From NCBI RefSeq assembly GCF_024521635.1, contig NW_026250418.1:310001-374000 (forward strand): a stretch of DNA of 64,000 nt, read 5' to 3'. The stretch comes from Tricharina praecox. Its lineage: Eukaryota. The position numbers were made by a program, and so were the translations under genes. Position 1 is the stretch's first letter. Every line of letters begins with the position of its first letter. The notes beneath the pieces were generated by a model. It saw nothing but the letters and a program-made list of their open reading frames with translations, made no database searches and was not told the origin of the DNA. Below, in pieces: positions 5,730 to 62,834 of the stretch.

Positions 5730-6366
5730 CTTGATCTTGATCTTGGGCAGCTATGGAATCACATCTAGGAGAAGGGGAAACTGCCGTATGATATACAAAT
5801 CTAGGACTGAAATGATGAATCTGTCCGGCGTGATTAACTGCCGAGTGATAGATCTTCGACCATATTTGGGCCGTGGAACCGTGTGACTCATCCGACGGGC
5901 ACTTCTGCTTTTAGGCACAAATTCGAGAGCCATGCACAATGCACATTGCAAGTTGCCTTGGACCCTTGATACACAAAAAAGGGCTGCATGGAATGCGGAG
6001 TTGTATGCGAGTGGGTCACAGAAATGCTGGCCGTTGCTGACACGTGATCGCTGCACCGTCGTGGTCATATGATATCACTCGTGACAGCTGTCAATGGGTC
6101 GTAAATTCCTTAATAGACAGGTTCCAAACTGGAGTGGCCTGCCGTATGTACGAGCTCAGCAGCACCTTCGGCGGTCTGGGGACAGGATTGGGTGCACTTA
6201 AAATCGTCAAAATCGAACACGGCCGGCTGAATACAGATCATGAACAAGGAGAGTTACAAGGCACCAAGTAACAAACGGCGATGACTGGATGAGTAGACGA
6301 ACTGACCAACAACTTCTTACTACTTAAGTCCGCATTACCAAATATTTATATGTACATTTAGCACTA

Positions 6367-8239
6367 CTATACTTCCTCCATTGCTGTAGGGGCAGGTGTC
6401 TCTTCCTTTGCCTCTTCTTTCCTGAGATGTCCTAGCAAGCCCTTCTTCCCCACAATTTTTGCGCGCTCGATCACCGCCTCCTCATCGCGCAGTAATTGCT
6501 TCGCCATAGCTTCGTCCGCGGCATTCCTGCGCTTCTCCTGACGAACAGCCCACTCGCGCTCGCGCAGCGCCTTCCCACGGCGCTCGCGTTCTTCGTTGGC
6601 CTTACGCTCTTCTTCGGTGAGCACTACCTCTGGCAAAGACGCGAGAAACTCGGTGATGATGCTATCACGTGATGACTCCGGTGCTGTGACGTATCGCGCA
6701 TCCGCAAGAACGCTGTCGGGGAGCATGTGGAGTGCCGTGTTTCGGGTGAGCGAAGGCGTAGATTTAAGCAGTTTCTTGAGGTCGACTTCGCGGATAGACT
6801 CAGAGGTTTTGTTGCCTGCAAAATGTTAGTCTTTATTGCATCATGAAGGGGAGGGGGCCGTACGAGCAACAAAGTCTCGGTACATCTTCTCGCGCTCCTT
6901 ATCTGAGAGCTTCGTATCTTTCATGACAGGTTCCTTCCTCCACTTGCGCTTGAACTCAGCCCAAAACAATTTTGACGTCGTGTGCTCCTTGAGGAATGCC
7001 CAGAACGGGATCTTCGGGTTGATCTTGCCAGCCCTTTCCTTCTCCTCACGCAATTGTGCGGCTCGTTCTTTGCACCAATCCGTAAAGACCTCCTTGCGCG
7101 CTTTGGTCGTGGAGAGGACGGTGTAGCGATTGTCGTCCACTAGCTTCGGAAGCGCATCGTCCCAAGTGCTGTACGGCGATATACCTTGGTCGTCCAGCAG
7201 CTGGCGGAAAAGCGCGATGGTATCTTCCGGTGCAAGTTCCTCACCTTCCTCAAAGTCTTCTTCACCAAGCCCATATTCTTCGGCCATTGCTTCGAGCTGC
7301 CACGCGATATCCTCTTCCGTAAACTCTTGCGCCTGATTGGGTGGCGGCTGCTGGTGCTCTTCGTCGCTCTCCTCCTCCTCCTCCTCCTCCCCCTCCTTTT
7401 CTTCTTCCGCTTCCGCCTCGTCGTGTTCTTCCTCCGCCTGTGCCTCCTTCATAACCTCATCCGCCGGCCCAGCTGCCTCATCGGTCCGAACCTTCTTGGC
7501 ACTCGGCTCGCCTTCTTCCACCTTCGCGGGCATCAAAGCTCTAAGCCTCTCCTTTTCCACCCGCTCCTTCTCCACCTTCTCCGCCGCCTTTCTCGCCCTC
7601 CTCTCTCTCCTTTCCCGACGCTCCTGTTCTTGATCCACGGGCGGCATAACATCAATCTTCTCCTGCACCTCCTTCGGCGCGGTCCACAGCGAAGCACGCG
7701 TCTCAATGTTATGCACAAAAGTCCTTCCCATCTTTGTCGTTACCAGGACCCACGGCTCTGCACCCGGGATAGCGCGCTTCTTCTTCGGGCCATCCTGGGG
7801 CTTCAGCTTCGGCTTCGGCGGGAGTCCATGTCCTCTCGGAGGGAACCCTTGTCCTCTCGGACCGCCACGAGGCGCGCCTCGCACGTCTTGGAAGTACGGC
7901 CGGTGTGGCAGTTGGTGTCCGCCGGGCGGCGGGAACGGTTGTGCGTAGGGGACGTAAGGGCGAGGGTATGGGCCTGCTTGTAGGGGCGGTGGCGGGCCGA
8001 TTGATAGCCGTGGGGCCGGATAACGCGGTGCGACTGGCGGCGCGACGGGACGCGAGTAGGTTGAGGTTTTGGTGGACGCATTGTAGTAGTATGAATGGCC
8101 TGTGGTCGGGTTAGCTATGGACGAGTAAGGACACCTCCGTGAGCTTCGACACACCTGTTGGTGCTTTGTGTTCGGTCCATCCCGGGGCCAGAGGCAGGGA
8201 GTTGGCAGGTGGAGGAGGTTTCGGTGGTAGTGAAGCCAT
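6367..8239 (-). CDS. WW + FF domain pre-mRNA splicing factor (Dre4/Urn1/TCERG1-like), 3 exons
   Basis: ATG at 8239 (MASLPPKPPP). WW domain LAPGWTEHKAPTG|HSYYYNASTKTSTYSRP spans intron 8154-8100. A second WW-like segment PWVLVTTKMGRTFVHN and an FF domain LFRQLLDDQGISPYSTWD follow. Intron 6863-6816; stop at 6367. Confidence 0.88.
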
Positions 8240-8527
8240 TGGGGAATCTGGACGATCGTGCCTGCTACAGCCGGGAGGTCAATTATTGGTGTTTGTAACG
8301 ATTTGCAGCTGCGCGTCAACGGCGTGTCGTCCTTGGCGTCGACTTAGTTAGGAGAGTGAGGCTCTGCTTTCTTGTGCTACTCGACCAGCAGTTAACTCAC
8401 CTCCAACACCTCAACGAGCAACAACCACCACCCCACCACCATCCCCCACCACCAGCAAATCATCTCCATCTCCATCGACTTCCATCCTCGACCTACAGCT
8501 GTCACACCCCTGATAACTGTCTCTACA

Positions 8528-9580
8528 ATGTCCCGCCGCTACGATTCCAGGGTGCGTATCTGGAATCCCCGCCCCGCCAAAGCAAGCAAGCAACTGATCG
8601 CTCCGAATAGACTACCATCTTTTCGCCCGAGGGCCGTCTCTACCAGGTCGAATACGCGCTCGAGGCTATCTCACACGCTGGTACAGCTCTGGGAGTCTTG
8701 GCCAAGGATGGAATCGTGCTTGCGGCGGAACGGAAGGTTACCAGCAAGCTGTTGGAGCAGGACACGAGCGCCGAGAAGCTGTACATTCTCAATGAGTACG
8801 CCGCCATACCCATACCCCGTCATCTCTTCTGATCTCACCCCACCTCGTCGTTTCCGGCGATGGAGAGAGCTAGCTAGCGGATCCACAAGCTAACCGTGAT
8901 CTCCGGATGCGAATAGCAACATGATCTGCGCCGTCGCCGGAATGACCGCCGATGCGAACATCTTGATCAACTATGCTCGGCAGGCAGCTCAGAACTACCT
9001 GATGACCTACAACGAGGATATCCCTTGCGAGCAGCTGGTGCGAAGACTGTGTGATCTGAAGCAGGGCTACACGCAACACGGAGGTCGATTATCTTTTCCT
9101 CTTGGTTGGAGCTAGTTGTAGCTGACTCGGGGTGTGGTAATCGATGGCAGGTCTCCGCCCTTTCGGTGTCTCGTTTATCTATGCCGGTTACGACTCGTCA
9201 CGCCAGTTCCAGCTTTACCAGTCGAACCCTTCAGGAAACTACGGAGGATGGAAGGCTACCTCTGTCGGAGCCAACAACGCTTCCGCTCAGAGCTTACTAA
9301 AGCAGGACTACAAGGAGGACTGTACTCTGACAGAGGCCTGTGCAATCGCCGTGAAGGTGCTGAGCAAGACCATGGATAGCACTACGCTCAGTAGCGAGAA
9401 GAGTAGGCGTTTCTAGTGCATGCGGCTCTGGCACCAGCTAACGAGTGATCTGCAGTTGAATTCGCTACCGTAGGACAAGATGCGGACGGCAAGGTGTATC
9501 ACCACCTGTGGACCGCGGAAGAGATTCAGTCATTGTTGAAGGAGCATGGACTGGCGAAGGAGGTCGAGGAGGAGTCGTAG
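8528..9580 (+). CDS. PRE9: 20S proteasome subunit alpha type-3, 5 exons
   Basis: [32 protein letters not shown]...[24 protein letters not shown]...[18 protein letters not shown]...[12 protein letters not shown]. Four introns with branch sites; TAG at 9578-9580. Divergent from the WW/FF gene with 288 bp between ATGs. Confidence 0.97.
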
Positions 9581-29081: not shown

Positions 29082-32000
29082 GGCTAAGGGAGGAGGGAAA
29101 AGTACTATTATCTTGTAATCTTTTTTTGTATATAGAGTCCTAGCAAGCTCGGGGCAGGAGTTTGGAGTGAGAGTAGATATGGGATGCAAATAGATTTTTT
29201 CGGTGCCCACCGACTGATGAAAGGTGTTTTGTGATTCTTCGGCTTCGATTTCTCTTCGGGGCTTGGAATGCTTCGCGGCATCGTTTTGGTCCCAGTACTC
29301 TAGTGAGATGTCATTCGCTAAAGGCTGCGGCCTCTCGTTGTCCAACCCACTCACCCAGCACAATTGGAATCTGCAATGTCCCATTCACTCTCTCTCGTTC
29401 ACTCACCTAGCCCTATCGTCTGCAACGTCCCATTCACTCTCTCGTTCACTAGAGTACCTATGCCAACCCATACCGCCCAGAATTCCCAAATTCTCAACGG
29501 CTCCCATTCAGTCGCCTCGTGTTGAATTTTCTCACCTTGAGTCTTCGCCCGAATTGCAGGAGCTTCCACGCAAGTTGGCAACCAGCAGCCACACACGCCC
29601 CGTTCATGAACGAGAGGTACCGTATATGTACGGCTGAAGAAGAAATGTCAGCTCATACGACGACAGTACTGGTACTAATCGAACCGGTGACTTTCTACGC
29701 AGTACCTCACCTAGGTATGTAAACACGAACCAGATGAGTTTCTCCAAGACCTATTGAACTCCACACGACGGTTAACGATCACGATCTTCCAGCCACTCAA
29801 TGATTTGTTCCGACCAGCCACACGAATCACAGATCACAAATCACGGATCACATATCGGCACCAGTCAATGCCCATTGCCACCACCCATATCGTCCGGAAA
29901 CATTTCCTCTTTGGGAGCTCTTCCCTTCTCTTCCCATGACGGTGTCCAATGCGAGGTATAGTAGGGGCCATTCTAGCGAAAGTGAAGGGGAAGGGAACGT
30001 GGGGTTCCGGAAGTCTCCCCGAGCTGAGCTTCTGGATCGTGGATGGGCTGTTATGGCGGGGGGTCAGCCACACCACACCTGCAACAAACGCCTCAACGAA
30101 ACGATTTCGGCTGCGGGTGAACGCTAGGTACCAGGCACAAAGCATAATAGAGACATCGCAGCCGAATGACGACGATAAACACCCCATATGGCGAGCAATT
30201 GCCCGACTAGGGGCTGGCGTGCGCGCAAACCCCTTCTTCTCACTGCTCAGGGCGGCTTTATTTTCTGCCGAAGAGCAACCCTGTAGCTGCAGCTGCAGAT
30301 GGGGATGGAGATGGAGAGTTCCCGTGGTAGCTAACTGATGCTGCCGATAGTTCTGGACCAGGGCAGATATGTAGGTACATACGACGACGTGGCCAACAAA
30401 TCATCGTCGAAATCAGCCGGCGTGGAGGCGAACTCGAATCCCAGCACATTTATGTAGGTACACTTCACTTCTTTCTCGGAAGGATCCGTAAACGTGAACG
30501 TGTTTGCGGTCAAATATCGAACATCATGCGAACGAAAAAAATTACGTCCCACTCGACAAGTCACAGAATCGTCAAAGAACACGGCATGTCAAGCATGTAC
30601 TACCTACTCTGCAAGGATCCGCGAGATATGGAGAAGGGATCACCTATCAGTCAGCGTCATGCGTAGTTATCGTCATGCGTATCATAATTCCTACATAAAT
30701 CATACATACCCGCGTCCGATCATTTTTTGTGGATCGATTCGCGAAGCGCTTGGACCATCCCGGGTGAGACGGGCCGGGGGGGGTTGGGGTGTCGGGGTGT
30801 GTCTCACCCTTTTTGCGGGGTCGGTCGGCTCGGTGAAACGACGACGGCTTCATCTTCAAGCTCTTGCACTTTTGCCTGGCGATTGAGTCGTAGTGCAATA
30901 AAAGGACTACGGCTCGGTAGTTTTTTCTGAGGGAGGGAGGGGAGCGAGGGAGAGCGAAGGCAAGCGAGCATTGACGCGCAGAGATCTGCAGAACGGCATT
31001 AGTTAATTCCTCGGAAACGTCAGGGACAGAAACCCTGGCGGGGTTTACTGCGCAAGCCACCCCCGCGGACTCCTGCAATAGCCTGCAATGGCAGTGTATA
31101 GCGAGTCATGCGCCGTTGCCTACGTCCCCGCACGTGGGAATAACTCGTGTGGCTGGTATGTAGCTCGCGGGGGGCTAGTTAACTAACCCTGAGTCACGAC
31201 GGGTTCTATCGTTTCGGATGGATTGTTTCTAACGTCCTTGATGCACCGTGTACGGGTCATGTCAGCTCAACGAGACGTCTAGTGTGGCTGATCACGCTCC
31301 CCCCTTCCCCTCCCCCCTCCCCAGCCACCACGATATCGCGGAGTGGTGCTACATACATCCTACCGGTATGGAGAACTTCCGGCGACGCGACGGAGGGGTA
31401 GCAGTTGAGTGCTGTCTGCAGCTTGCAGCCTGGAGGGCGAGGTGGTTCGCGTTCCCCTTATTGATTGATTGATCCGCAGCTGCTATGTGCCTAACGGCTC
31501 TTCCAGGACTTTTGCCCCGTCCTGTAAGCTGTAAGCTCTCTCATCCGATACGCAGCAGAGATACTTTTGCCACACCCTCCCCTTCTCCGCTCCCGTCCCA
31601 GCCACCCTCTCTCCCTGAGCCCTCACGGAATACCTATCCAGGTAGGTGCCGTCGTCATCGAAACATCAATGCTTCGCCAGCCACATTTTCTGGGAGAATC
31701 GCGCGCATTGCGATTACGACGGAGGAGAACGGAGGGCGGAACTTCCGTCTGCAGCTGCAGGTACGTACGGTGTGGCTCCGCTCATGCACCAGCCCCAAAT
31801 CCCTGATGAATTTGCTTTGCTTTCCTTGTAGGTAGGCGGAATCTCGCCCCCGTCGATAGAGTAGGTAGAGTAGGTGGAAGTGAATGAGGTATCCAGGTAC
31901 CCGAGAGACGTAAGTGTGCCACGACTGGCCGTGGACGGCCGAGTCAGTTCATCATGCTCATGCCTCGCGTCCGGGTCCGGCTGTTCGTGCCGCGGAGGGA

Positions 32001-52844: not shown

Positions 52845-55800
52845 TCACACCGCTGTCGCTGCCGCAGTAGGCGGAGCATTTCTCCTCCCACCTCTCCTAC
52901 CCTGAACAGGGCGCGGACCTGGACCTGGCCCCGGACCAGGCCCAGAATTTCTACGCTGTGCCGGTGCCGGCGCAGGTATAGGCCCACTTCCACCCTCCGC
53001 ACCACCACTGGTATCGCCGCCTCCACTTCCTCCCGTTTTGCCGCCTCTCGCCTTCCCCTTCCCCCTCCCCCCACCGCCGCCGCCACTCCCTCTTCCACCT
53101 CTTCCGCCCCTCTTGCCTCCACGAGCCTTTCTCTCCTCCTCCCTCTTCTGTGCCTCCTCTTCCTCCTTGACACGCCTACTCTCTGCCTCCCACCACTGGA
53201 GAAACTCTTGCTCTTCCTGAATCTCCTGCAAATTTCGCTTCATTTGGTATTCCTTCAGTAACACCTTCTGGGCCTCTTCCTGATCGATGATGTCTTGTAT
53301 ACTGAGGGGAAGGAATTCTGAGGGTCGGGGGCGGTGTACTGGCGGGGAGACGGCTAGAGACGAGGCGGAAGGAACATTCCGCACAGCTGGAGATTTGGGT
53401 GTTAGGGAGGCCATTGCTGCTCGCTGCTGTATCGGAGCAACAGAGGGAGGTGTAGCTAAAGTCGACGAGGAGGAAGCAAGGACTTCCTTCAGTGAAACAC
53501 GAGGTGTCGACGCAGCAGGATTGATATTCCAAGGCGCCTTCTTATCCGGTGTCGAAGGTGGGGTAGACATCACCAACGAGCTTGTCATTTGCTGTTGCTG
53601 CTGTTGGCGCTTCCGTTCCTTCTGACTCAACTTCTGCGGTGTTTCAGACTTGGGAGAAGCAGTGGAAGAAGAAGAGGTAGCCATGAGTTGCGCTGTGAGT
53701 GCTGATCGCCCGGATGCTGTAGCGGCGGCTTGTGACATGATTTCCTTCAGGTCGAGTTTGTCGGATTTGACTGCTGAAGGTGCTTGCCATGGGTCAATGG
53801 ATGACCGACGCGGCGGCGGTGCCGGAAGCTCAAATGCGACCTCTTGAGGAAAGCTGCAGGGCGACTGTTGAGGTATCCCACCCCATGCAGGCGCCTTTCC
53901 TTTGGCGTTTCTCACAGTGGGGGCGTTTGTTTCAATGCCCGTAGATATCCTGATAGGCGAAGAAGCGCGAGGTATCTCGTCGTCATCCATCGAGAAGATA
54001 TCGTCATGGCCCTGCTGCGCCGGCTTAACCAACGGAGAACCACGGGCAACTGTAGCCTTCGGAGCCTTCCGCTTAGGCTGCTGGGGGGACGATGATGACG
54101 GTGAGGAGAACTTCAATGAGCTCGAAAGTGGCTGTTCCTCCGACATGGCAGTGTAGTGGGCAATTAACGCAGCTCGTTCCTTTTCGGAATCATCTTTCAT
54201 TGTTGGATACTTCTCAAGAAGCTGTTGTTCCTGCCTACCAGTTCGAGAACGAGGGGACAGACGCTTCTGATTCGCACGAACGGCTTCGTCAAGTTCGGCC
54301 ATGAGATCATCGTCTACCCCATCCAGTAGACTGTGCTTCGTTAGCAGTATTCACGGAAGTTAGCGACTTGAGTAACTTACTGGTTTTCAAGCATAGTCTC
54401 AAGGTTAGAGCAGATGTACTGCAAACACTGCTGCTTAAAGCCCTTCTCCGAGCACGGTGCACAGGCCGAGAGCAGTCCCGCCGCGTTGCGAGTATTGACA
54501 TACCGGCCAATCACCTTTTGACAAATCTGAGACAGCCTCTCGAGCATGAGCTCGTTGGCAGTAGCAAGTACGTCCAGCACGAAGTCGAGATACTGGTCAA
54601 TATCGGTGTCCTTCACGCCAACTCGAATACCGTCGAAGCCCTCGACATCCCAATCGTAGTAGAGCCACGAGACTACCATATCTATGATTTCCCTTGGAAC
54701 GTGCTTCATATCGACATGTATTGCTCCCTTTTCCATTTGGCGACCCAGAAGCCACCGTCCGCCGGCCCCTCCTCCATACAGGGCATCGAAGAAGGGACAC
54801 CGAACACGCATTAGAGTAGAATGTACCGAGATAGCTTCGCCGTCCGCAGCGTCGATTATCATATCCGCCGTCTCGAAGAACGCAGGATCTCCGTAAGCCA
54901 GCTTGAGATCATTATCCAGACAACGAGATGGGTAGTGCATTCTCCCCACCGCATCATGGAGTGCTGCCAACCCGAGAGCAACAGCGACTTCTGACAGCTC
55001 GGTCCTCAAAGACTTGAAAAACTCCCGTTCCGGCTTGGTTGTCCCGCGGCGATGCCAAAGATCAATGACCGTATCGACATAGAGATAATAGACTAGATTT
55101 AGAACGGTTAAAAGCTCGACATCGTGGAATACGAGCTTTAATTTCTCTGCGGACGGCACTATCTCGCACACACCGGGCACACTGCCAGAGCGTTCAGAAA
55201 CCAGCTTGCGCAGAACGGGAGACCTCGACAAAATAAAGCTGTGGACTGGAATACAGACGGCTTCGCTCTTGCTGTTAGAAACAGTCATGTCCCACTGATC
55301 CAAGCCTTCGTGAAGTTCGAGGTCGGCAAGATGTGACTGAAGTTCTTCCTCCACTGTTTGCTTCGTGAACCAAGCAACGGCTTTTGAATATCCTTCAGGT
55401 CTCGGTTTGGGACCGTATCCCCACTCTTCGTCACCTTCGTCGTTCAGTCGTATATCTTCGGCGTCCTCGTCCAGTGCGAACAAACCGCCAAAGGATAGCA
55501 TCTGGCTGACCTCATCCCAGAGTCCGGATGGCTCCACTGAGAGCCGAGTCCGCATCAAATCGGAATCCTTCCGGATAGCGGCGAATGAACCAGTCGTATT
55601 GCTCCTTACCGACGTGATGCGAGTCAATCCCGGAACACGATCAAACTTGTATCGTCCAGCCTCTCCACCGCTCTCCTTGATTTTGGCCCGTTTAACTCGA
55701 CTCCAGACGCTACCAGATTGAGTGCAAATTATTATGTTGCCATCAGCTCCAATGTCGACATCCCGCACGGCCATGCGCTTCTTCCTCAAGCTCCAAGCCC

Positions 55801-57460
55801 TCTGTGGCATCCAAGAAACTTTGCCGGATCCCCGGGTAGCCTTTTCTTTCAACGTGGCGTCCACATCAAGCGCGAAGACATCGCCCATCTGCGACAGAGT
55901 GCAAATAGTGTCTCCTCCTCCCGTGATTTTCATGATCGAGTTAGAGCCAGTGTCGTACCGAGTGACGTTCATTACACCGGCTGGTAAACCAAAGAAACGT
56001 TCCATGGGGAATGTGAGCCTGGAATAGCCATATCCTGCCAAGATCCAGACTTCGCTATTCTCGAGCAAGATAACAGTGGCCTTGTCGATAGCGACGACGT
56101 CCTTGATCTTGGTTCCATTCAAGAACATGGCGGAGACTTTGCGTGGTGTGGACTGGACTTCCACGGTCTGCGCGTCCGAAGAATCCAAGATGCCTAACTG
56201 GCCATCGTTCTTCCCGAAAGTAAACAGGGAGTCTTCCGTGAAGACAGCAGTATGGACTCGACTAGCTGCACATCCGATGACAATCTCACGTTTGATGAGG
56301 CCGAAGACCTGACGGGGTGTCGGCTGCAGTGGCTCCTCCTTGGGCGATTTCTGTGGCTGAGCATAACCCAGCTGGCCACACTGATTCCTCCCCCAAGAGT
56401 ACACATCTCCACCCTCAAGGACAACAACAGTGTGGTCCTGTCCTAGCGCTACCTTTACCACCCTCTTCTTCGGAAGTAGCGGCGGCGACAGCGGACGGAA
56501 CGTGAACTGGACAGTCTGCTCTTCGCCGAAACCGAGTCGACCACCGCGGCCGAAACCACATACGAAGAGATTGGAATGGGGATCATCTGTAAGGATGGCA
56601 GTGTGAAATTTTGAAAGAAAGACTTCTTGAATTCGGATGGGATTAAACAGTACGGTTGCATCTAAAAGTTCCTCGGCTGTCTTGCCTTGGTTTCCTAGCC
56701 CGTCGTGATACCGTCGCTTCGCCTGCTCCAACAGTAGATGTCTTGGTCGGTGCAGCGGAATCCGCTCCGGAAAAGAGCGATCGTCTCCATCGATGAAACC
56801 CAGAGTCATGTTTTTGTTGGAGCCCCAAAAAAACACCTCGTCTCCCATCGCCACCAGTTGGCTTCCGCCAGCTACAGTTGCTTCATCCGTATCCGAATCT
56901 CCATCCAATCCATCGTCCACATCCTCGCGAGCGCGTCCTTCGGGAGTAATCTCAACCTCTTCGATAGTCGCCTCGAAAACATCGAACGGTGCATCTCCCG
57001 CATTGTCCTTGGACTTGACGAGACTCCAGTTGCTGGGACTCGCCAGGATGATCTCCCGTGCCGCAGAAATGTTCGCATGGTACAACGCACGATGCAGACA
57101 CGTCCACCCCGACTCCAGATCCACCAACGTCGGGTCCGTGAGGGGATGTGCCAGCAACGCCGTAACGAATGGCAACCGATCTTGCTCCGTACACGCCAGA
57201 TGCAAGACGTTCCTCCCCATAGCGTCGAGCTCCGCCAGCATCTTCTTCGTAATCACGACATTCGCTGGTGGCGATCCCGGACGATTCTTCGCCGAGATGG
57301 TACCGCCCAGTGATGATTTATAGGAGCCCGTGGGAGTCGTCAACCCCGCCCTGTGTGCGCGGTGTCCCGTGGTATAGGAGTAGGGCTGCGAGCCTTGGAG
57401 CAGGCGCTGGAAGCGCTCCGCATCATTTTCGAGGTAGTACCGCCAAAGGTAGCTGCTCAT
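52845..57460 (-). CDS. btb1: Ankyrin-RCC1-BTB/POZ protein (Btb1/IBTK-like Cul3 adaptor), ~1521 aa, 2 exons
   Basis: Ankyrin: GRNVLHLAC, DLESGWTCLHRALYHANI. RCC1 repeats: WGSNKNMTLG, CGFGRGGRLG, VALGQDHTV..WGRNQCGQLG. Two BTB-like segments: IPVHSFILSRSPVLRKL and VHSTLMRVRCPFFDAL. Intron 54380-54331. C-terminal KLSQKERKR and LQEIQEEQEFLQWWEAES motifs and an RGG-rich tail. Confidence 0.93.
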
Positions 57461-58383
57461 AACACGAAGGAAGATCCTTGATCGCTCTCGGTCACCCTGT
57501 GAACTGGGTGATGGAGCGATGAAGAATCGAATGGATCGAAACTAGAGGTTTCAATCCGGTTGGCGACGGGCGAAGAGTAGGTTGCGAAACCGTGGGAAGG
57601 CTGGACTGAAGTTTACTGACTGGCGGACGGGTGAAAGCCGGGTGGGAAACTTCGTGAACGCGGCCGTGGATTTGGATACGTGTGGAGCGCCGAGAGTCCG
57701 ATAGATCGATCAAAAGGTGGTGCACACGGACAGAAGTTCGAGGTTGAAGAGTGTGTATCTCCGGGGGTGCCGTGGCGGTGGCGGGGGCGGTGGGGCGCGG
57801 TGGACTACAGCAACACCGAGTCCTACGGAGGCGCGGGAAGCAGTTGGGCTGGCAATAGCTTGGATATCGGCAACGCTTGGAGAGAATTGAGGGTATCAAT
57901 CACTGGCTGAGGACGGCGGGGTTCGACGAAGGACGTTCAAAGGACGTTGGAGATGAGCAAGATTTGTTTCACGTTCACGGCTGATTAGTGGGCTTTTGAC
58001 TCTAGCGGCATCAACGATGATTGGTCCGGAGAAGGAGAAACACGGATTATCCCGTCACTCACCAGGCGTCATCCACTCTGAAAGATCTAATCTGATCGTC
58101 ACGCAGTCGATATTGATTCTGAGCTCTGAATCTTCAAAGCATGAGCGTCATGGACTCTGTGGTGTTAGAAGCCTCCAAATCCCTGTATACTCTGCCCGCC
58201 AGACTACCTTTCTATGGTTAGATAACGTAAGCGCAGGAAGCGAATCAGAACCTGGAAGTGAAACAGTCTTCGAGGTGTGGTTTAAGGCTAGCCTTGTGGG
58301 GTGCACCCCTATGTTAAAGCTACATGCTCCACACTTCCAGCAGCTACATATCCACTACTCTCCCAATATTCATCTATTGTCAA

Positions 58384-60045
58384 ATGTCTGTTACAAGCAA
58401 AAGTGGACCCGCCAGCAGTGGTCAAGGGGTGTTTGTACCTGTGAATAGCCGTCTTCAAACGGCCGTTACGTTTTACCACGCCAATCGACAAACTCCGGTT
58501 CCCCGTCTCTATCGAAGCAAGGATAACAAGGGGAAAAAGGTCACCAACTACGGCTATTCGATTCGGCGAGTAGCAACGATGCATGGGGTTGCTTACTCAC
58601 TTCTGCAAAGAGCGATTACTTCCGGTGGGAAGATCAAGACCCGGTCACAAGCACACGAAAAGGAGATGGTCCTGACGGTCGAGGAAGAGAAAGTTCTTGA
58701 AGAATGGTGTCTACAAAACATGCATGGTTGGGGCTATCAGATACGGCTTGACTTGCTACGAAATATGGCTTGTGCAATTGTCGAAGAGCGAGAACGGCGG
58801 AATTCCGAATCTGCCAGCGATTTCCGCCTTCGAATGCTCGACCATTTGAACGATGATGTCGGTCCAAATTTGGATCTCATTGGTAAGAACTGGTATAAAC
58901 GGTTCTTATCACGACATCCAGCAATATCGGCAATGCACAGTGGCATCGACCCTTTCAATCCCAACGCCGCTGTTCCTAAAAATCCTCCTGACCTGCGTCG
59001 GAATCAAAATCGTATCGACACACACGCTTCCGATGAATCGAGCTCTACGGCGAATCCGACTGACTTAACGATGGCCGCGACTCCTCCTCCGACAACACCT
59101 CCAAGACGAACGCCTCGATCAGACATATCGCGTCCCACAACCCCACGTAACGCTATCGAAGTGCAGCAGCATGTTGAAGCTCTCTTAGAATGGTTGGACT
59201 CTTCAGAACGTCAATGGATAGAGCTCGCAGAGTCTGGTATCCGGGAACGAGTACAACAACTAGCAAAGTCGGCATGCATGTCAATGTCCCGACTCGAAGC
59301 ACTCAAAATCGAAACCAACCGACAATTACGACTTTTCCAGCGTGACGGAGGAAACCCTAGTGACGAAGAAACTGGTCCCGACTATCAAGCAGAGTTGACT
59401 GATTGCCGAGTCCTTACGATTGGAGAAGCCAAATTACTAAGAAGACGAGCGGAGGAAAAATGGGAAGCGAAGCAACAGCGTTTGGATGAGAAGCGACAGG
59501 CAAACGCCTTGGAAAGAGCGATGATTGAATTGGATGGTCCCGACTATAAAACAGTGTTGACCGATAAACCAGTCCTTACGTTTGGAGAAGTCAATTGTCT
59601 AAGAAGACGAGCGGAGGAACTATGGGAAGCTGATATTTAGAAGCAATGGCGTTTGGATGAGAAGCGACAGGAGAACGCCTTGGAGCAAGCGATGATTGAA
59701 TCTCCTATGGGTGGTATCCACGAAGCACAAGCAGCTGCAGAACCCGGAGAGTCTGTTGTGTTTCAAACAATGAACCCGTTCAACGGATTGAATGAGGCTG
59801 GTGGAGTTTTTGGTGCATCGGTGGTGGAGGCTCTCAAGCCAGAGTTTTTCGTCGTCGCAACCGGAGAGAGATCCGAACATTATCAGCATCTAATTCCCCG
59901 GCTGAAGAAGGACAAGGTGAAGAGGGGCTATGCGCATCATGGGAAGGCGGAGAATTTTGGTGTTTGGACAACTGTCATGGCCAGAACCAAGGACGAGTGG
60001 ACATTCGTTCATGTTTCCTTTCCTTTGGATAGTTCTTCAGATTGA
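58384..60045 (+). mobile_element. pogo/Fot1-type transposase-derived ORF lacking the DDE core; one in-frame TAG at 59638-59640
   Basis: psq-like HTH YSIRRVATMHGVAYSLLQR, then TRSQAHEKEMVLTVEEEKVLEEWC..GWG and IGKNWYKRFLSRHP (CENP-B-type HTH). This runs directly into SGIDPFNPNA (post-DDE motif) and the typical PTTP../RVLT coiled-coil tail. ORF 59653-60045 is in the same frame. Confidence 0.85.
59374..59701 (+). repeat. 162-bp (54-aa) internal tandem duplication; copy 2 has a 9-nt insertion (59631-59639)
   Basis: GPDYQAELTDCRVLTIGEAKLLRRRAEEKWEAKQQRLDEKRQANALERAMIE vs GPDYKTVLTDKPVLTFGEVNCLRRRAEELWEADI*KQWRLDEKRQENALEQAMIE. Confidence 0.95.
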
Positions 60046-61085
60046 AACTTGTATGTAGTATGACCCCCCGGCGTCGGATGAATACTTTCTCTTCTCCATA
60101 ATCTTTTTGTACTGAATAGTCTCGGACTGGATTGACATTGTTGTACTGGATTCTCCTGCTTTCTGTTTTCTGTCATCTGAACTTGATTGATTCTATTGTA
60201 ACAAATACACGTGCCAGTTCCGTCAAGTTCATTCAATTGTACTTCAGACTTTTCTTCATGAGGAGTGACTCATTCGTGTCGTTTCAGCGGGCGATAGTTA
60301 CTCTAGAACATAGCAATCGGTGCCCCTTGTTAGAAGGACTCGTGGAGGCGATTCGCTGGAACGATCGAGATGGTGTCAAGTGGTATGTTCGGTCTAGGAG
60401 CTATTGGTACAAGAGAGAGAGAAAGAAAACCAAACTTGGACCTACCGCACCGAATGTTCCAAGCACCCACCACCGGTCCTCTGAATGGCTAGTGAACTAT
60501 TCACAGAAACACACTCGTCCCCACACTCCCCTCTGTCCGTTCCGCTGGACTCCCCGTTAGCAGCGACTGTGCCCGACCAGTCTATGCAAGTACGGGTCCA
60601 TGATTTGGACCAACCTGAACTGGTTATCTTAATGGTCCGAACTGGTATGTAGAAGCTGATAAAGTACCAGTAGAGGAACTATCGGGAACACATGTACGCC
60701 GTTGACTGCAGATTTAGCCACGGCTGCCTTGACAAACCAGCTTTCCAAATGGAAGGCCTTCCCCTAACTAACCGAAACTGCCCCGTTTCTCTGAGATGCC
60801 TCACAGTGCTTAATCCAGTTCGCTGGACGATGATGGTGAAGATAGCCCATCTGGATCTGGACCCTTACTGCACTCATTGTGACTCCCATAGGTATTTATC
60901 CTTGCCCTTTGCCACTCATCGGCTCCGATACGATGTCGTAATCACTTAGCGAGACTCGCGCACCCCTACAAGAACCCGCTATACGCGTCTCCCCGTCTCG
61001 AGTGCCATTTCACCACACTCCACGGTCCTCTTCTTCAACGGATCTTCACGTTCCGACGCCCCCGCTCGGTCTCAACACCGACAAC

Positions 61086-62834
61086 ATGCCCCCCAAACCA
61101 AAAACCCCCGCTACCACGAAAAAGGAACCTCCAAAGACCCAAACTCTCATCGCCAGCGCCAACACCGGCCTCACTTTTACCCGGCGACCTGTCGTCGCCT
61201 CACCGGCGACAGCGACGGCGACTCCACGACAGGGAAAGCTCTCCGCGTTCGGCTTCGCAAAGAAGAAGAAAGATGTGGTGGAGAAGAAGGGTGTGGAGAA
61301 AGAGGAGGTGATTGTGCAGGAAACGCAGTTCGCCGGGTTGACGCAGAGTCCCGGGTTCGAACCTTCCGACGGCGAGGATGAGGATGAAATGGGCACGGGA
61401 CTGAAGCCGAGGTTCGAAGGCGTCGCTAGGAGGCGGGGAAGTCGGAAGGAAGTGATGAGGATGGCTACGCCGCCGTTGACGGAAGACGCTACGCCGCCGT
61501 TGCCGATGGACGTCGTCAGAGAAGCACAGCTTGGGGTCGGCAGACGAGGGGAGCGTCAGGCCGTCGAAACCCCGCCGACGCTGCGGAAACGGAAGATCGA
61601 GACCGAGACACAAGACCCGACGCCGTCACCGACGGTGAGACGGAAGAGGAACATCACCCCCACCCCGTCCCCGCCTCCGCCTCCGCCTCCGCCAATACCG
61701 CACGATGATAGAGTCCTCATGCCGCCGCCTCCCGTAACACCAAAGCGTCCCGCGAACAAAAAGTTTCCGGACGAGATACCGTGCTCGCAGAGCCCCGTGC
61801 CTAGCCCGCTTAAGACGCAGGTAACGCCGGGGAAGTTCGAGATGCCGGTTTCGCCGTTGAAGGCCAGGAGCGTAGCCTCAAGGACTGTAGTGAGGAGTAG
61901 TCAGTGGTACGAAAATGAGGATACTCAGGGCGTTTTTGACTCGGTGGAGGCTGGGGATGCATCACCGCTCTCGCCGCTGCCAAAGACAACGCCTGAGCCG
62001 CTGGGATTCGATATGCCGAAGCATAAACAGAAGCATAAGCCCCCGTTCCCCCCTCCTATGGATCCAGTCTCCACCGGTTTCTCCTCACAAATCCAAACTC
62101 CCGCCACTCCCCCACACCCATCTCCCCGCACCCCTCCAGCCGCACGAACACCACCGGGCATCGTGCCGGAAACACCACCGCACCCGGCTTCCCAGCGTTA
62201 TCAAGGAATAAACCAAGCAACCGCCTCCTCCGCCAGCGCTCTCTCGCCCAAAGCGTTCTTTTCGCAGACGCAGTCACAAACCCAGGGCTCACATCGGCAT
62301 CCATCGCGCTCACCGAGCAGAACAGCCACGACAGCCACGACGCTGTTCTTCTCCACCGCGCGCGAGATGCCATCCCCAAGCAAGCCCAGCCCGGCAAAAC
62401 ACCATACCCCTCCCAGGCCAGATATAGAAGACGGAGAGGAAGACGACGACTTCGACCTGGACTTGGACCTGGACCTGGACCTGGACCTGGACTCGCAGCC
62501 AATACGCTACCCCATCACCGTCTCGCCCACTGTCTCGCTGCACTCCACTCTCACGCCCACCCACTCCTCCTCCGACGATACGGAAGAAGAAGAAGAAGAC
62601 CCACCGCAATCGTTCCACCCCGTGCGCACCCAGCAGTTCTCAGAGAGTATGTATGTGCGCAAGTTCGACGACGACGACGAGGAGGAGGAGGAGGAGGAGG
62701 AGGCGCGGCGGCGGGGAGGGAGGAAGGATAGGGAAGGGTGGAGGGATGCCGAAGACATTACTACCAGTCAGTTGCTCCCCGACACCTTGATGGAGACGTT
62801 TCCGCTGCCGGATAGTTGGGAGGAGACGCAGTAG
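61086..62834 (+). CDS. Uncharacterised intrinsically disordered Pro/Ser/Thr-rich protein (~582 aa, intronless)
   Basis: Long open frame from ACAACATG at 61086. Many S/T-P and S/T-Q sites, basic NLS-like stretches (KKKKD, RKRK, RRKR), acidic tracts, and C-terminal TSQLLPDTLMETFPLP. Confidence 0.8.
   Translation: MPPKPKTPATTKKEPPKTQTLIASANTGLTFTRRPVVASPATATATPRQGKLSAFGFAKKKKDVVEKKGVEKEEVIVQETQFAGLTQSPGFEPSDGEDEDEMGTGLKPRFEGVARRRGSRKEVMRMATPPLTEDATPPLPMDVVREAQLGVGRRGERQAVETPPTLRKRKIETETQDPTPSPTVRRKRNITPTPSPPPPPPPPIPHDDRVLMPPPPVTPKRPANKKFPDEIPCSQSPVPSPLKTQVTPGKFEMPVSPLKARSVASRTVVRSSQWYENEDTQGVFDSVEAGDASPLSPLPKTTPEPLGFDMPKHKQKHKPPFPPPMDPVSTGFSSQIQTPATPPHPSPRTPPAARTPPGIVPETPPHPASQRYQGINQATASSASALSPKAFFSQTQSQTQGSHRHPSRSPSRTATTATTLFFSTAREMPSPSKPSPAKHHTPPRPDIEDGEEDDDFDLDLDLDLDLDLDSQPIRYPITVSPTVSLHSTLTPTHSSSDDTEEEEEDPPQSFHPVRTQQFSESMYVRKFDDDDEEEEEEEEARRRGGRKDREGWRDAEDITTSQLLPDTLMETFPLPDSWEETQ

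Follow-up and report, generated by a model that had tools for sequence, protein, structure and literature searches.

Truncated transposases that act as repressors are known, the KP type of the P element being one such case. The Fot family is described, in those parts of PMC7386202 on which we draw, as a fungal and very widespread family within the pogo superfamily of IS630-Tc1-mariner DNA transposons, with DD35D catalytic spacing and with HTH_psq and/or HTH_Tnp_Tc5 domains. The same parts give the terminal inverted repeats (TIRs) of Fot elements as mostly 40-60 bp or about 100 bp long, with TA duplications in clades FotC and FotD only (PMC7386202). Domesticated pogo genes appear in a table of that paper (CENP-B, TIGD and POGK/POGZ) as genes that have kept DDE_1, have Ka/Ks values of 0.06-0.21 and are conserved in many species. 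Co-option of DNA-binding modules in Drosophila is treated in PMC13548663; the sections of it used here name as criteria of domestication a single copy, absence of TIR and TSD, conserved microsynteny, placement in a clade apart from transposons, purifying selection and model-fitting expression, and class candidates that fail these criteria as truncated copies or decaying pseudogenes.

We examined a locus at 58384-60045 of a 64-kb stretch of DNA (the window, meaning the whole stretch that was analysed), which a sequence-only reading had proposed to be a pogo/Fot derivative without its DDE domain, fused to a foreign C-terminal domain and co-opted by the host. Our analysis makes it quite likely that the locus is an immobilised, non-autonomous, internally deleted Fot/pogo-type (DDE_1, DD35D) relic. 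This reading is carried by the anatomy of the locus, its homology, its position in a tree and the relaxed constraint on it; the locus is in addition probably transcribed and would lack a function. Relatives were taken from protein databases (P numbers) and from a metagenome scan in which 333 stretches matched the search pattern and 25 were confirmed as loci L001-L025. Contigs came from a metagenome run, X1, and a second run of the same study, X4, both of DNA, and from two small runs of two other studies, X2 and X3, whose status as RNA is a guess. The features of the locus are as follows.

58223-58291, plus strand: TA flank (58223-58224) and left TIR, matching the termini of family elements, with GGAAGYGAAWCAG at 58236 and 58254.
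58327-60159, strand not given by the contigs: probable unspliced transcript, from X2 and X3 contigs of guessed RNA status.
58384-59640, plus strand: 418-codon open reading frame (ORF) with its in-frame TAG, from ORF reading.
58384-58941, plus strand: N-terminal DNA-binding region (aa 1-186), with HTH_Tnp_Tc5 at aa 100-135, sharing 61-73% identity with the corresponding part of relatives that have DDE_1.
58941-58942, plus strand: internal deletion junction at which the DDE_1 core is gone, this being 738 nt in L001 and L003.
58942-59372, plus strand: family-native post-DDE tail (GIDPFNP ... ETNRQLR), aligning to P0006 and to the tails of L001, L003, L008 and others.
59373-59701, plus strand: lineage-specific tandem duplication with the TAG in unit 2; relatives have a single unit.
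59590-59643, plus strand: 54-nt intron implied by a 555-aa NCBI model, with ends GTCAAT...GAAG, kept in the X2 and X3 contigs.
59641-60045, plus strand: family-native C-terminal module (134 codons and TGA) behind the stop, with 37 database relatives and collinear in six loci.
60046-60400, no strand: 3' flank in which inverted-repeat, alignment and motif scans did not detect the expected right TIR; the right boundary of the element is undefined.

The 418-codon ORF (protein P0002) begins with the ATG at 58384 and is open to 59637, as the sequence-only reading had it, and it is ended by an in-frame TAG at 59638-59640. Beyond this TAG the frame has another 134 open codons (59641-60042; P0001) before a TGA at 60043-60045. 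The earlier statement that the frame continues past the duplication into the C-terminal stretch therefore falls, because the TAG separates the two. Across its 553 codons the locus has a single stop and zero frameshifts. The direct duplication of about 54 codons, which had also been noted from the sequence, was recovered by a repeat search (59373-59530 versus 59535-59701, 84-89% identity); Tandem Repeats Finder reported nothing at 59373-59701. Start-to-start spacing of the units goes from 162 to 171 nt, and the TAG lies within the nine extra bases of unit 2. G+C content is 56-65% in the flanks (57550-57850 and 61000-62800) and 41-53% over the element and its 3' flank (57850-60400), a step that fits inserted DNA. 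On the minus strand the neighbouring gene (54380-57972) encodes an ankyrin-RCC1-BTB protein according to Pfam.

Pfam found HTH_Tnp_Tc5 alone in P0002 (residues 100-135, 22.5-22.8 bits against a cut-off of 22.2). HTH_psq had no match in this protein at E<=1, nor was there any match to a first HTH, and DDE_1 was absent. The earlier claim that both HTH modules are retained is thus borne out in part only, by HTH_Tnp_Tc5 (22.8 bits), the first HTH being without a Pfam match. A word-indexed protein search that covered 5.8 billion clusters and scored 8000 candidates returned six proteins at E<=0.001, namely the query and five others of 46-61% identity, two of them with precomputed DDE_1 assignments. 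Pfam scored DDE_1 at 71.6 bits for P0003 and at 76.9 bits for the L008 ORF, and in P0003, as read from its sequence, ...LLIFDGH is followed by 35 residues and QPLD, which is DD35D spacing. Residues 21-190 of P0002 are 61% identical to P0003, after which the window protein jumps to the post-DDE motif; from SGIDP onwards it is matched by P0006 (46% identity, E 1e-36). At the junction (...RHPAISAMH to SGIDPFNP) the frame is intact. In DNA alignments with L001 and L003 the left block of homology ends at 58941 and the right block begins at 58942, with a gap of exactly 738 nt (246 codons), which bears out the jump into SGIDPFNP without loss of frame and with the DDE region missing. No microhomology was seen at the junction. 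Judged by sequence, the locus encodes a derivative of a Fot/pogo-type transposase that lacks the DDE domain.

Within the protein search the deleted architecture turned up nowhere but in its own 90% cluster of three members, one of them from a named species, and longer relatives (733-2090 aa) were absent at E<=0.001, a result that is weak evidence. Structural comparison gave little: the AF2 model of the N-terminus had a pLDDT of 58.7, Foldseek against the PDB gave no match at E<=0.001 (best E 1.2) and a sequence profile search of the PDB gave zero matches. The weak Foldseek rows include the HTH proteins 6pax and 1u78, none of them significant.

The stretch behind the stop had been described as foreign and unlike a transposase, a description that comparison with the family contradicts. 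P0001, used as the query of an exhaustive HMMER search, matched 37 proteins at E<=0.001, with 16 at E<=1e-10 and five at E<=1e-30; matches were 39-84% identical and mostly short gene calls, and 13 of the 37 were inspected in sequence. In P0013 and P0039 the tail (ETNRQLR ... RVLT ... AEEK ... QKQ) runs into the module without a stop. P0014, in which the C-terminal half of DDE_1 and GIYPYNP are joined straight to the module, is another deletion derivative. By tblastn, the N-terminal region, DDE_1, the tail and a module like P0001 follow one another collinearly in six of the 25 metagenome loci (L003, L005, L008, L011, L012 and L013), and in five of the six every piece is in one frame. Because DDE_1-bearing copies carry the module in the same place and collinearly, the C-terminal stretch is the transposon family's own C-terminus and not a foreign domain. 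Of the earlier proposal, then, the DDE-less pogo/Fot derivative stands but the fusion does not.

An alignment of 21 sequences revealed the conserved block of this module as, roughly, VVEVLKxEFF...YQHPxPRLKKDKVKRGYAHxGKAENLGVW...WTFVHISFP. The module (about 75 conserved aa) belongs to no Pfam family, P0001 included; its best score in the ESM Atlas was 0.85, with no family, and at a pLDDT of 42.7 its AF2 model could not be used. The coordinates of the module are 59641-60042 in the window, 6769-7152 in L003 and 7888-8241 in L008. At the position of the window TAG all eight relatives that cover it have a sense codon, which encodes Gln in P0013, P0039, L008 and L013 and Leu in P0012, P0018, L003 and L005.

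None of the family copies inspected has a fully open frame. In L003 a stop follows ...FTNCLC, just past the DDE region, and in L008 and L013 the break comes close to where that region ends. N-terminal stops, one to three each, occur in L006, L011, L012 and L016, with two or three in L006, L012 and L016. Several independent derivatives of the family with internal deletions or frameshifts exist, among them P0005, P0006 and P0014 and loci L009, L010, L015, L019, L020 and L022. The tail of L010 has about 1.1 kb of DNA in addition to that of L009, and L002, L003 and L005 are alike at 98-99%.

In L008 the element spans 2687 bp (5742-8428), with TIRs of 63 nt and a TA on either side. The TIRs of L010 are about 70 nt long and lie at 5748-5801 and 8917-8987. 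The sequence-only reading had seen no TIRs around the locus. On the left this was mistaken, as 58223-58291 consists of TA and 67 nt that match the left termini of L003 (85% over 46 columns), L001 (score 94) and L010. On the right it was correct to the extent that an inverted-repeat scan, local alignments tested against shuffles and a motif scan all found no right TIR. The reverse-complemented left end scored at best 26 downstream of the ORF (shuffles 22.6 ± 3.6), and right ends of relatives scored 25-35 against the window, inside the shuffle ranges. The copy is preceded by TA at its left TIR and, since no right TIR is detectable, is one-ended with an undefined right boundary. GGAAGYGAAWCAG, which occurs twice in the left TIR, has no other exact occurrence in the 64-kb window. 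A single one-mismatch match lies at 31876 on the plus strand (expected count 0.34), and the minus strand of the whole window has no match, also with one mismatch. Among the family loci this motif is located in element termini, and at the right-hand terminus of L008, L009, L010, L011 and L013 it is on the minus strand. No further copies of the element were found within the window.

A right TIR candidate at 60260-60346 was dropped (score 33; shuffles 33-36 ± 5.5), and a dispersed repeat at 60414-60525 was ruled out as the element's TIR. This repeat has a summed contig depth of about 123 in X1 (7.6 beside it) and of 170-330 in the probable RNA runs, with many contigs ending loosely on both of its sides. 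The X2 contig of the downstream gene begins inside it, at 60479, and an X3 contig of 1136 nt and depth 355 starts with 60 nt related to it. Neither the repeat nor any other part of 57000-61500 contains tRNA genes or Rfam families.

A tree of 14 N-terminal rows placed the window copy inside a clade of seven rows (support 100/100) that also contains DDE-bearing elements. The median end branch is 0.037, whereas that of the window copy measures 0.29, similar to those of the decayed copies L006, L016 and L012 (0.27, 0.23 and 0.20). The window copy has private changes at six near-invariant columns (I99V, A104V, P119Q, D135E, F148R and P154H), and it has an 11-aa gap inside its DNA-binding region. 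The 27 invariant family columns of the N-terminus are intact. We estimated omega by the three-taxon Nei-Gojobori method, with dS partly saturated and the figures accordingly rough, as 0.50 on the window branch for the N-terminus (bootstrap 0.23-2.5), 0.33 for the tail and 0.86 for the C-module (bootstrap median 0.35), against 0.07-0.17 in relatives. The probability that omega is higher in the window copy than in a relative was 0.82-1.0 and the probability of omega>=1 was 0.10-0.16, with wide intervals. As the check on co-option that had been suggested from the sequence, dN/dS thus gave a mixed answer: the window branch, at 0.33-0.86, lies above its relatives, and values of 1 or more have low probability.

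Variation among strains was also considered. The X4 strain is about 1% diverged and has seven differing sites in 58384-60045, two of them synonymous and five nonsynonymous (L74V, P244L, W278G, H446Y and K513E); no X4 contig among those listed covers 59610-59650. This corresponds to a pN/pS of 0.75 (1127 N sites and 340 S sites), in a small sample of seven changes. The chance of at least five nonsynonymous changes in seven is 0.013 at an omega of 0.1 and 0.22 at an omega of 0.3. A single X4 contig of depth 5.6 has a 1-nt deletion at 58861 (codon 160), and X3 has one change, H185Y. Constraint on the window copy appears, on these comparisons of sequence, to be relaxed. The combination of one stop, no frameshift and an in-frame deletion fits a mostly active branch followed by a short relic phase, and it fits weak selection on the ORF as well.

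Coverage of the locus by X2 and X3 suggests transcription. One X2 contig spans 58359-60159 (depth 28.5, zero differences) and one X3 contig spans 58327-59997 (depth 13.8). Neither run has cover at 58005-58246 or 60183-60303, whereas the DNA runs X1 and X4 continue through both. Contigs of the neighbouring gene stop at 57972 in both X2 and X3, with adapter-like letters coming next in X3; a stop at this point would leave the Ank-RCC1-BTB gene with a 5' leader some 510 nt long, its end lying about 250 nt away from the left TIR. In the comparison over 57400-61000 no splice joint was reported for the X2 and X3 contigs, and their depth is about one-third to one-sixth of that of the neighbours, in two studies. 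The locus is therefore probably transcribed as an unspliced RNA of about 1.8 kb, although the pattern is a weak hint in contigs to which strand and rare isoforms are invisible. Transcription counts as inferred because the RNA status of both runs is a guess. The expression check that accompanied the earlier proposal accordingly has two sides, in that the locus is covered in probable RNA but the annotated intron is retained.

This intron belongs to the one named NCBI protein in the 90% cluster of P0002, a 'hypothetical protein BZA05DRAFT_474791 [Tricharina praecox]' of 555 aa. The model uses an upstream ATG at 58324, follows the ORF to 59589 and resumes at 59644-60042; joining 59589 to 59644 implies a 54-nt intron at 59590-59643 which removes the TAG in frame. 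The supposed intron is homologous to coding sequence of duplication unit 1 and of relatives. CTGAT occurs 5 nt before the TAG and fits the fungal branch-site pattern. Neither the donor GTCAAT nor the acceptor AAG agrees well with the splice consensus of fungi. The intron is probably an annotation device or artefact, and we regard appreciable use of it as quite unlikely.

On the relic reading, a Fot/pogo element is inserted in the interval that separates the Ank-RCC1-BTB gene from the gene that follows. It has lost its catalytic core through an in-frame internal deletion of 246 codons, has gained a tandem duplication of about 54 codons in the tail, and has a TAG in place of a sense codon ahead of the C-terminal module native to the family. 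With its right terminal repeat gone, the copy can be neither excised nor mobilised. An unspliced transcript is probably still made from the 5' region of the element itself and would give at most a 418-aa protein made up of the transposase DNA-binding N-terminus and part of the tail.

Some of the evidence sits awkwardly with a relic. For so long an end branch the 553 codons contain few lesions, namely one stop and no frameshift; the deletion preserves the frame; X1 contains only one contig at least 90% alike on the ORF; transcription is probable in two studies; and omega on the window branch is below 1 in most bootstraps. A young, lineage-specific HTH protein of 418 aa, co-opted or of the repressor type and binding either GGAAGYGAAWCAG-bearing ends or host sites, would be in keeping with the in-frame deletion, the scarcity of stops for the branch length and the probable transcription in two studies. 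It would also agree with an N-terminal region that is open and has its 27 invariant columns intact, with the absence from X1 of a second contig at least 90% alike on the ORF, and with a right TIR whose loss immobilises the copy. We nevertheless consider such a protein unlikely. The window copy is nested in a transposon clade and retains its left TIR, its omega is 3-7 fold above that of relatives, and its DNA-binding region combines six private near-invariant changes with an 11-aa gap. Moreover, the X4 strain has a frameshift allele and a 5:2 ratio of nonsynonymous to synonymous changes, the architecture was not found outside its own 90% cluster, and target elements were not seen in the 64-kb window.

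It is also conceivable, and in our judgement very unlikely, that the reference model is right and that splicing of a 54-nt (or 51-nt) intron at 59590-59643 yields a protein of 535-555 aa with the HTH, tail and C-module. The named NCBI model uses exactly this intron, whose length is divisible by three and which has CTGAT 5 nt before the TAG, a fit to the fungal branch-site pattern; the frame of the C-module is open for 134 codons with a bootstrap median omega of 0.35. However, the X2 and X3 contigs cross 59590-59643 without a joint, the GTCAAT donor and AAG acceptor are poor by the fungal consensus, and homology of the 'intron' to the coding sequence of unit 1 and relatives fits a model built to bridge a stop. 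We retain the relic reading, under which the public 555-aa 'hypothetical protein' and the 'fusion protein' of the sequence-only reading are both best read as a transposon relic whose stop is bridged by a doubtful intron. The lesson for other loci is that, where an odd domain sits on a truncated transposase, full-length copies of the same family should be checked first.

The proposal of a host-co-opted, domesticated protein is at odds with the retained left TIR, the nesting of the copy in a transposon clade, its relaxed constraint and an architecture found in no protein but that of the same locus in one named species. Set against the criteria in the sections of PMC13548663 used here, the locus is weakly single-copy, is probably expressed, keeps its left TIR and does not form a separate clade. 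Domestication is thus unsupported, and we would be rather surprised if it had occurred. There is a small chance that we are seeing a very young, species-restricted step towards it, in the form of an HTH-only trans-repressor or nascent regulator acting on GGAAGYGAAWCAG repeats or new host sites, together with an undescribed transposase domain in the C-module of about 75 aa. Should this less favoured reading hold, the locus would offer a rare view of how co-option of a DNA-binding module starts in a filamentous fungus.

Comparison with the described systems places the locus as follows. Domesticated pogo genes, to the extent that the sources consulted here describe them, resemble it in that its N-terminus derives from pogo-type HTH domains and in that the locus is apparently single copy and probably expressed; the locus differs from them in keeping a TIR, nesting among transposons, being under relaxed constraint and being known from one species only. 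With repressors of the KP type it shares an internal deletion that keeps the DNA-binding N-terminus and drops catalysis, and probably also transcription from its own 5' end. The window copy differs from these in having one TIR and in not being mobilisable, and a repressor role for it would be a candidate function. From the Fot family, as outlined in the parts of PMC7386202 cited above, the copy differs by its lack of the DDE core and of the right TIR, by its premature stop and by an HTH_psq that Pfam did not detect, and its own family has a post-DDE tail of about 330 aa ending in the module of about 75 aa without a Pfam family. Against these differences the family fits the features given for Fot: relatives of the window copy have DDE_1 with DD35D spacing, the N-terminus matches HTH_Tnp_Tc5, the TIRs are 63-70 nt long with TA flanks, and the host is a fungus, the named cluster member coming from a Pezizomycete.
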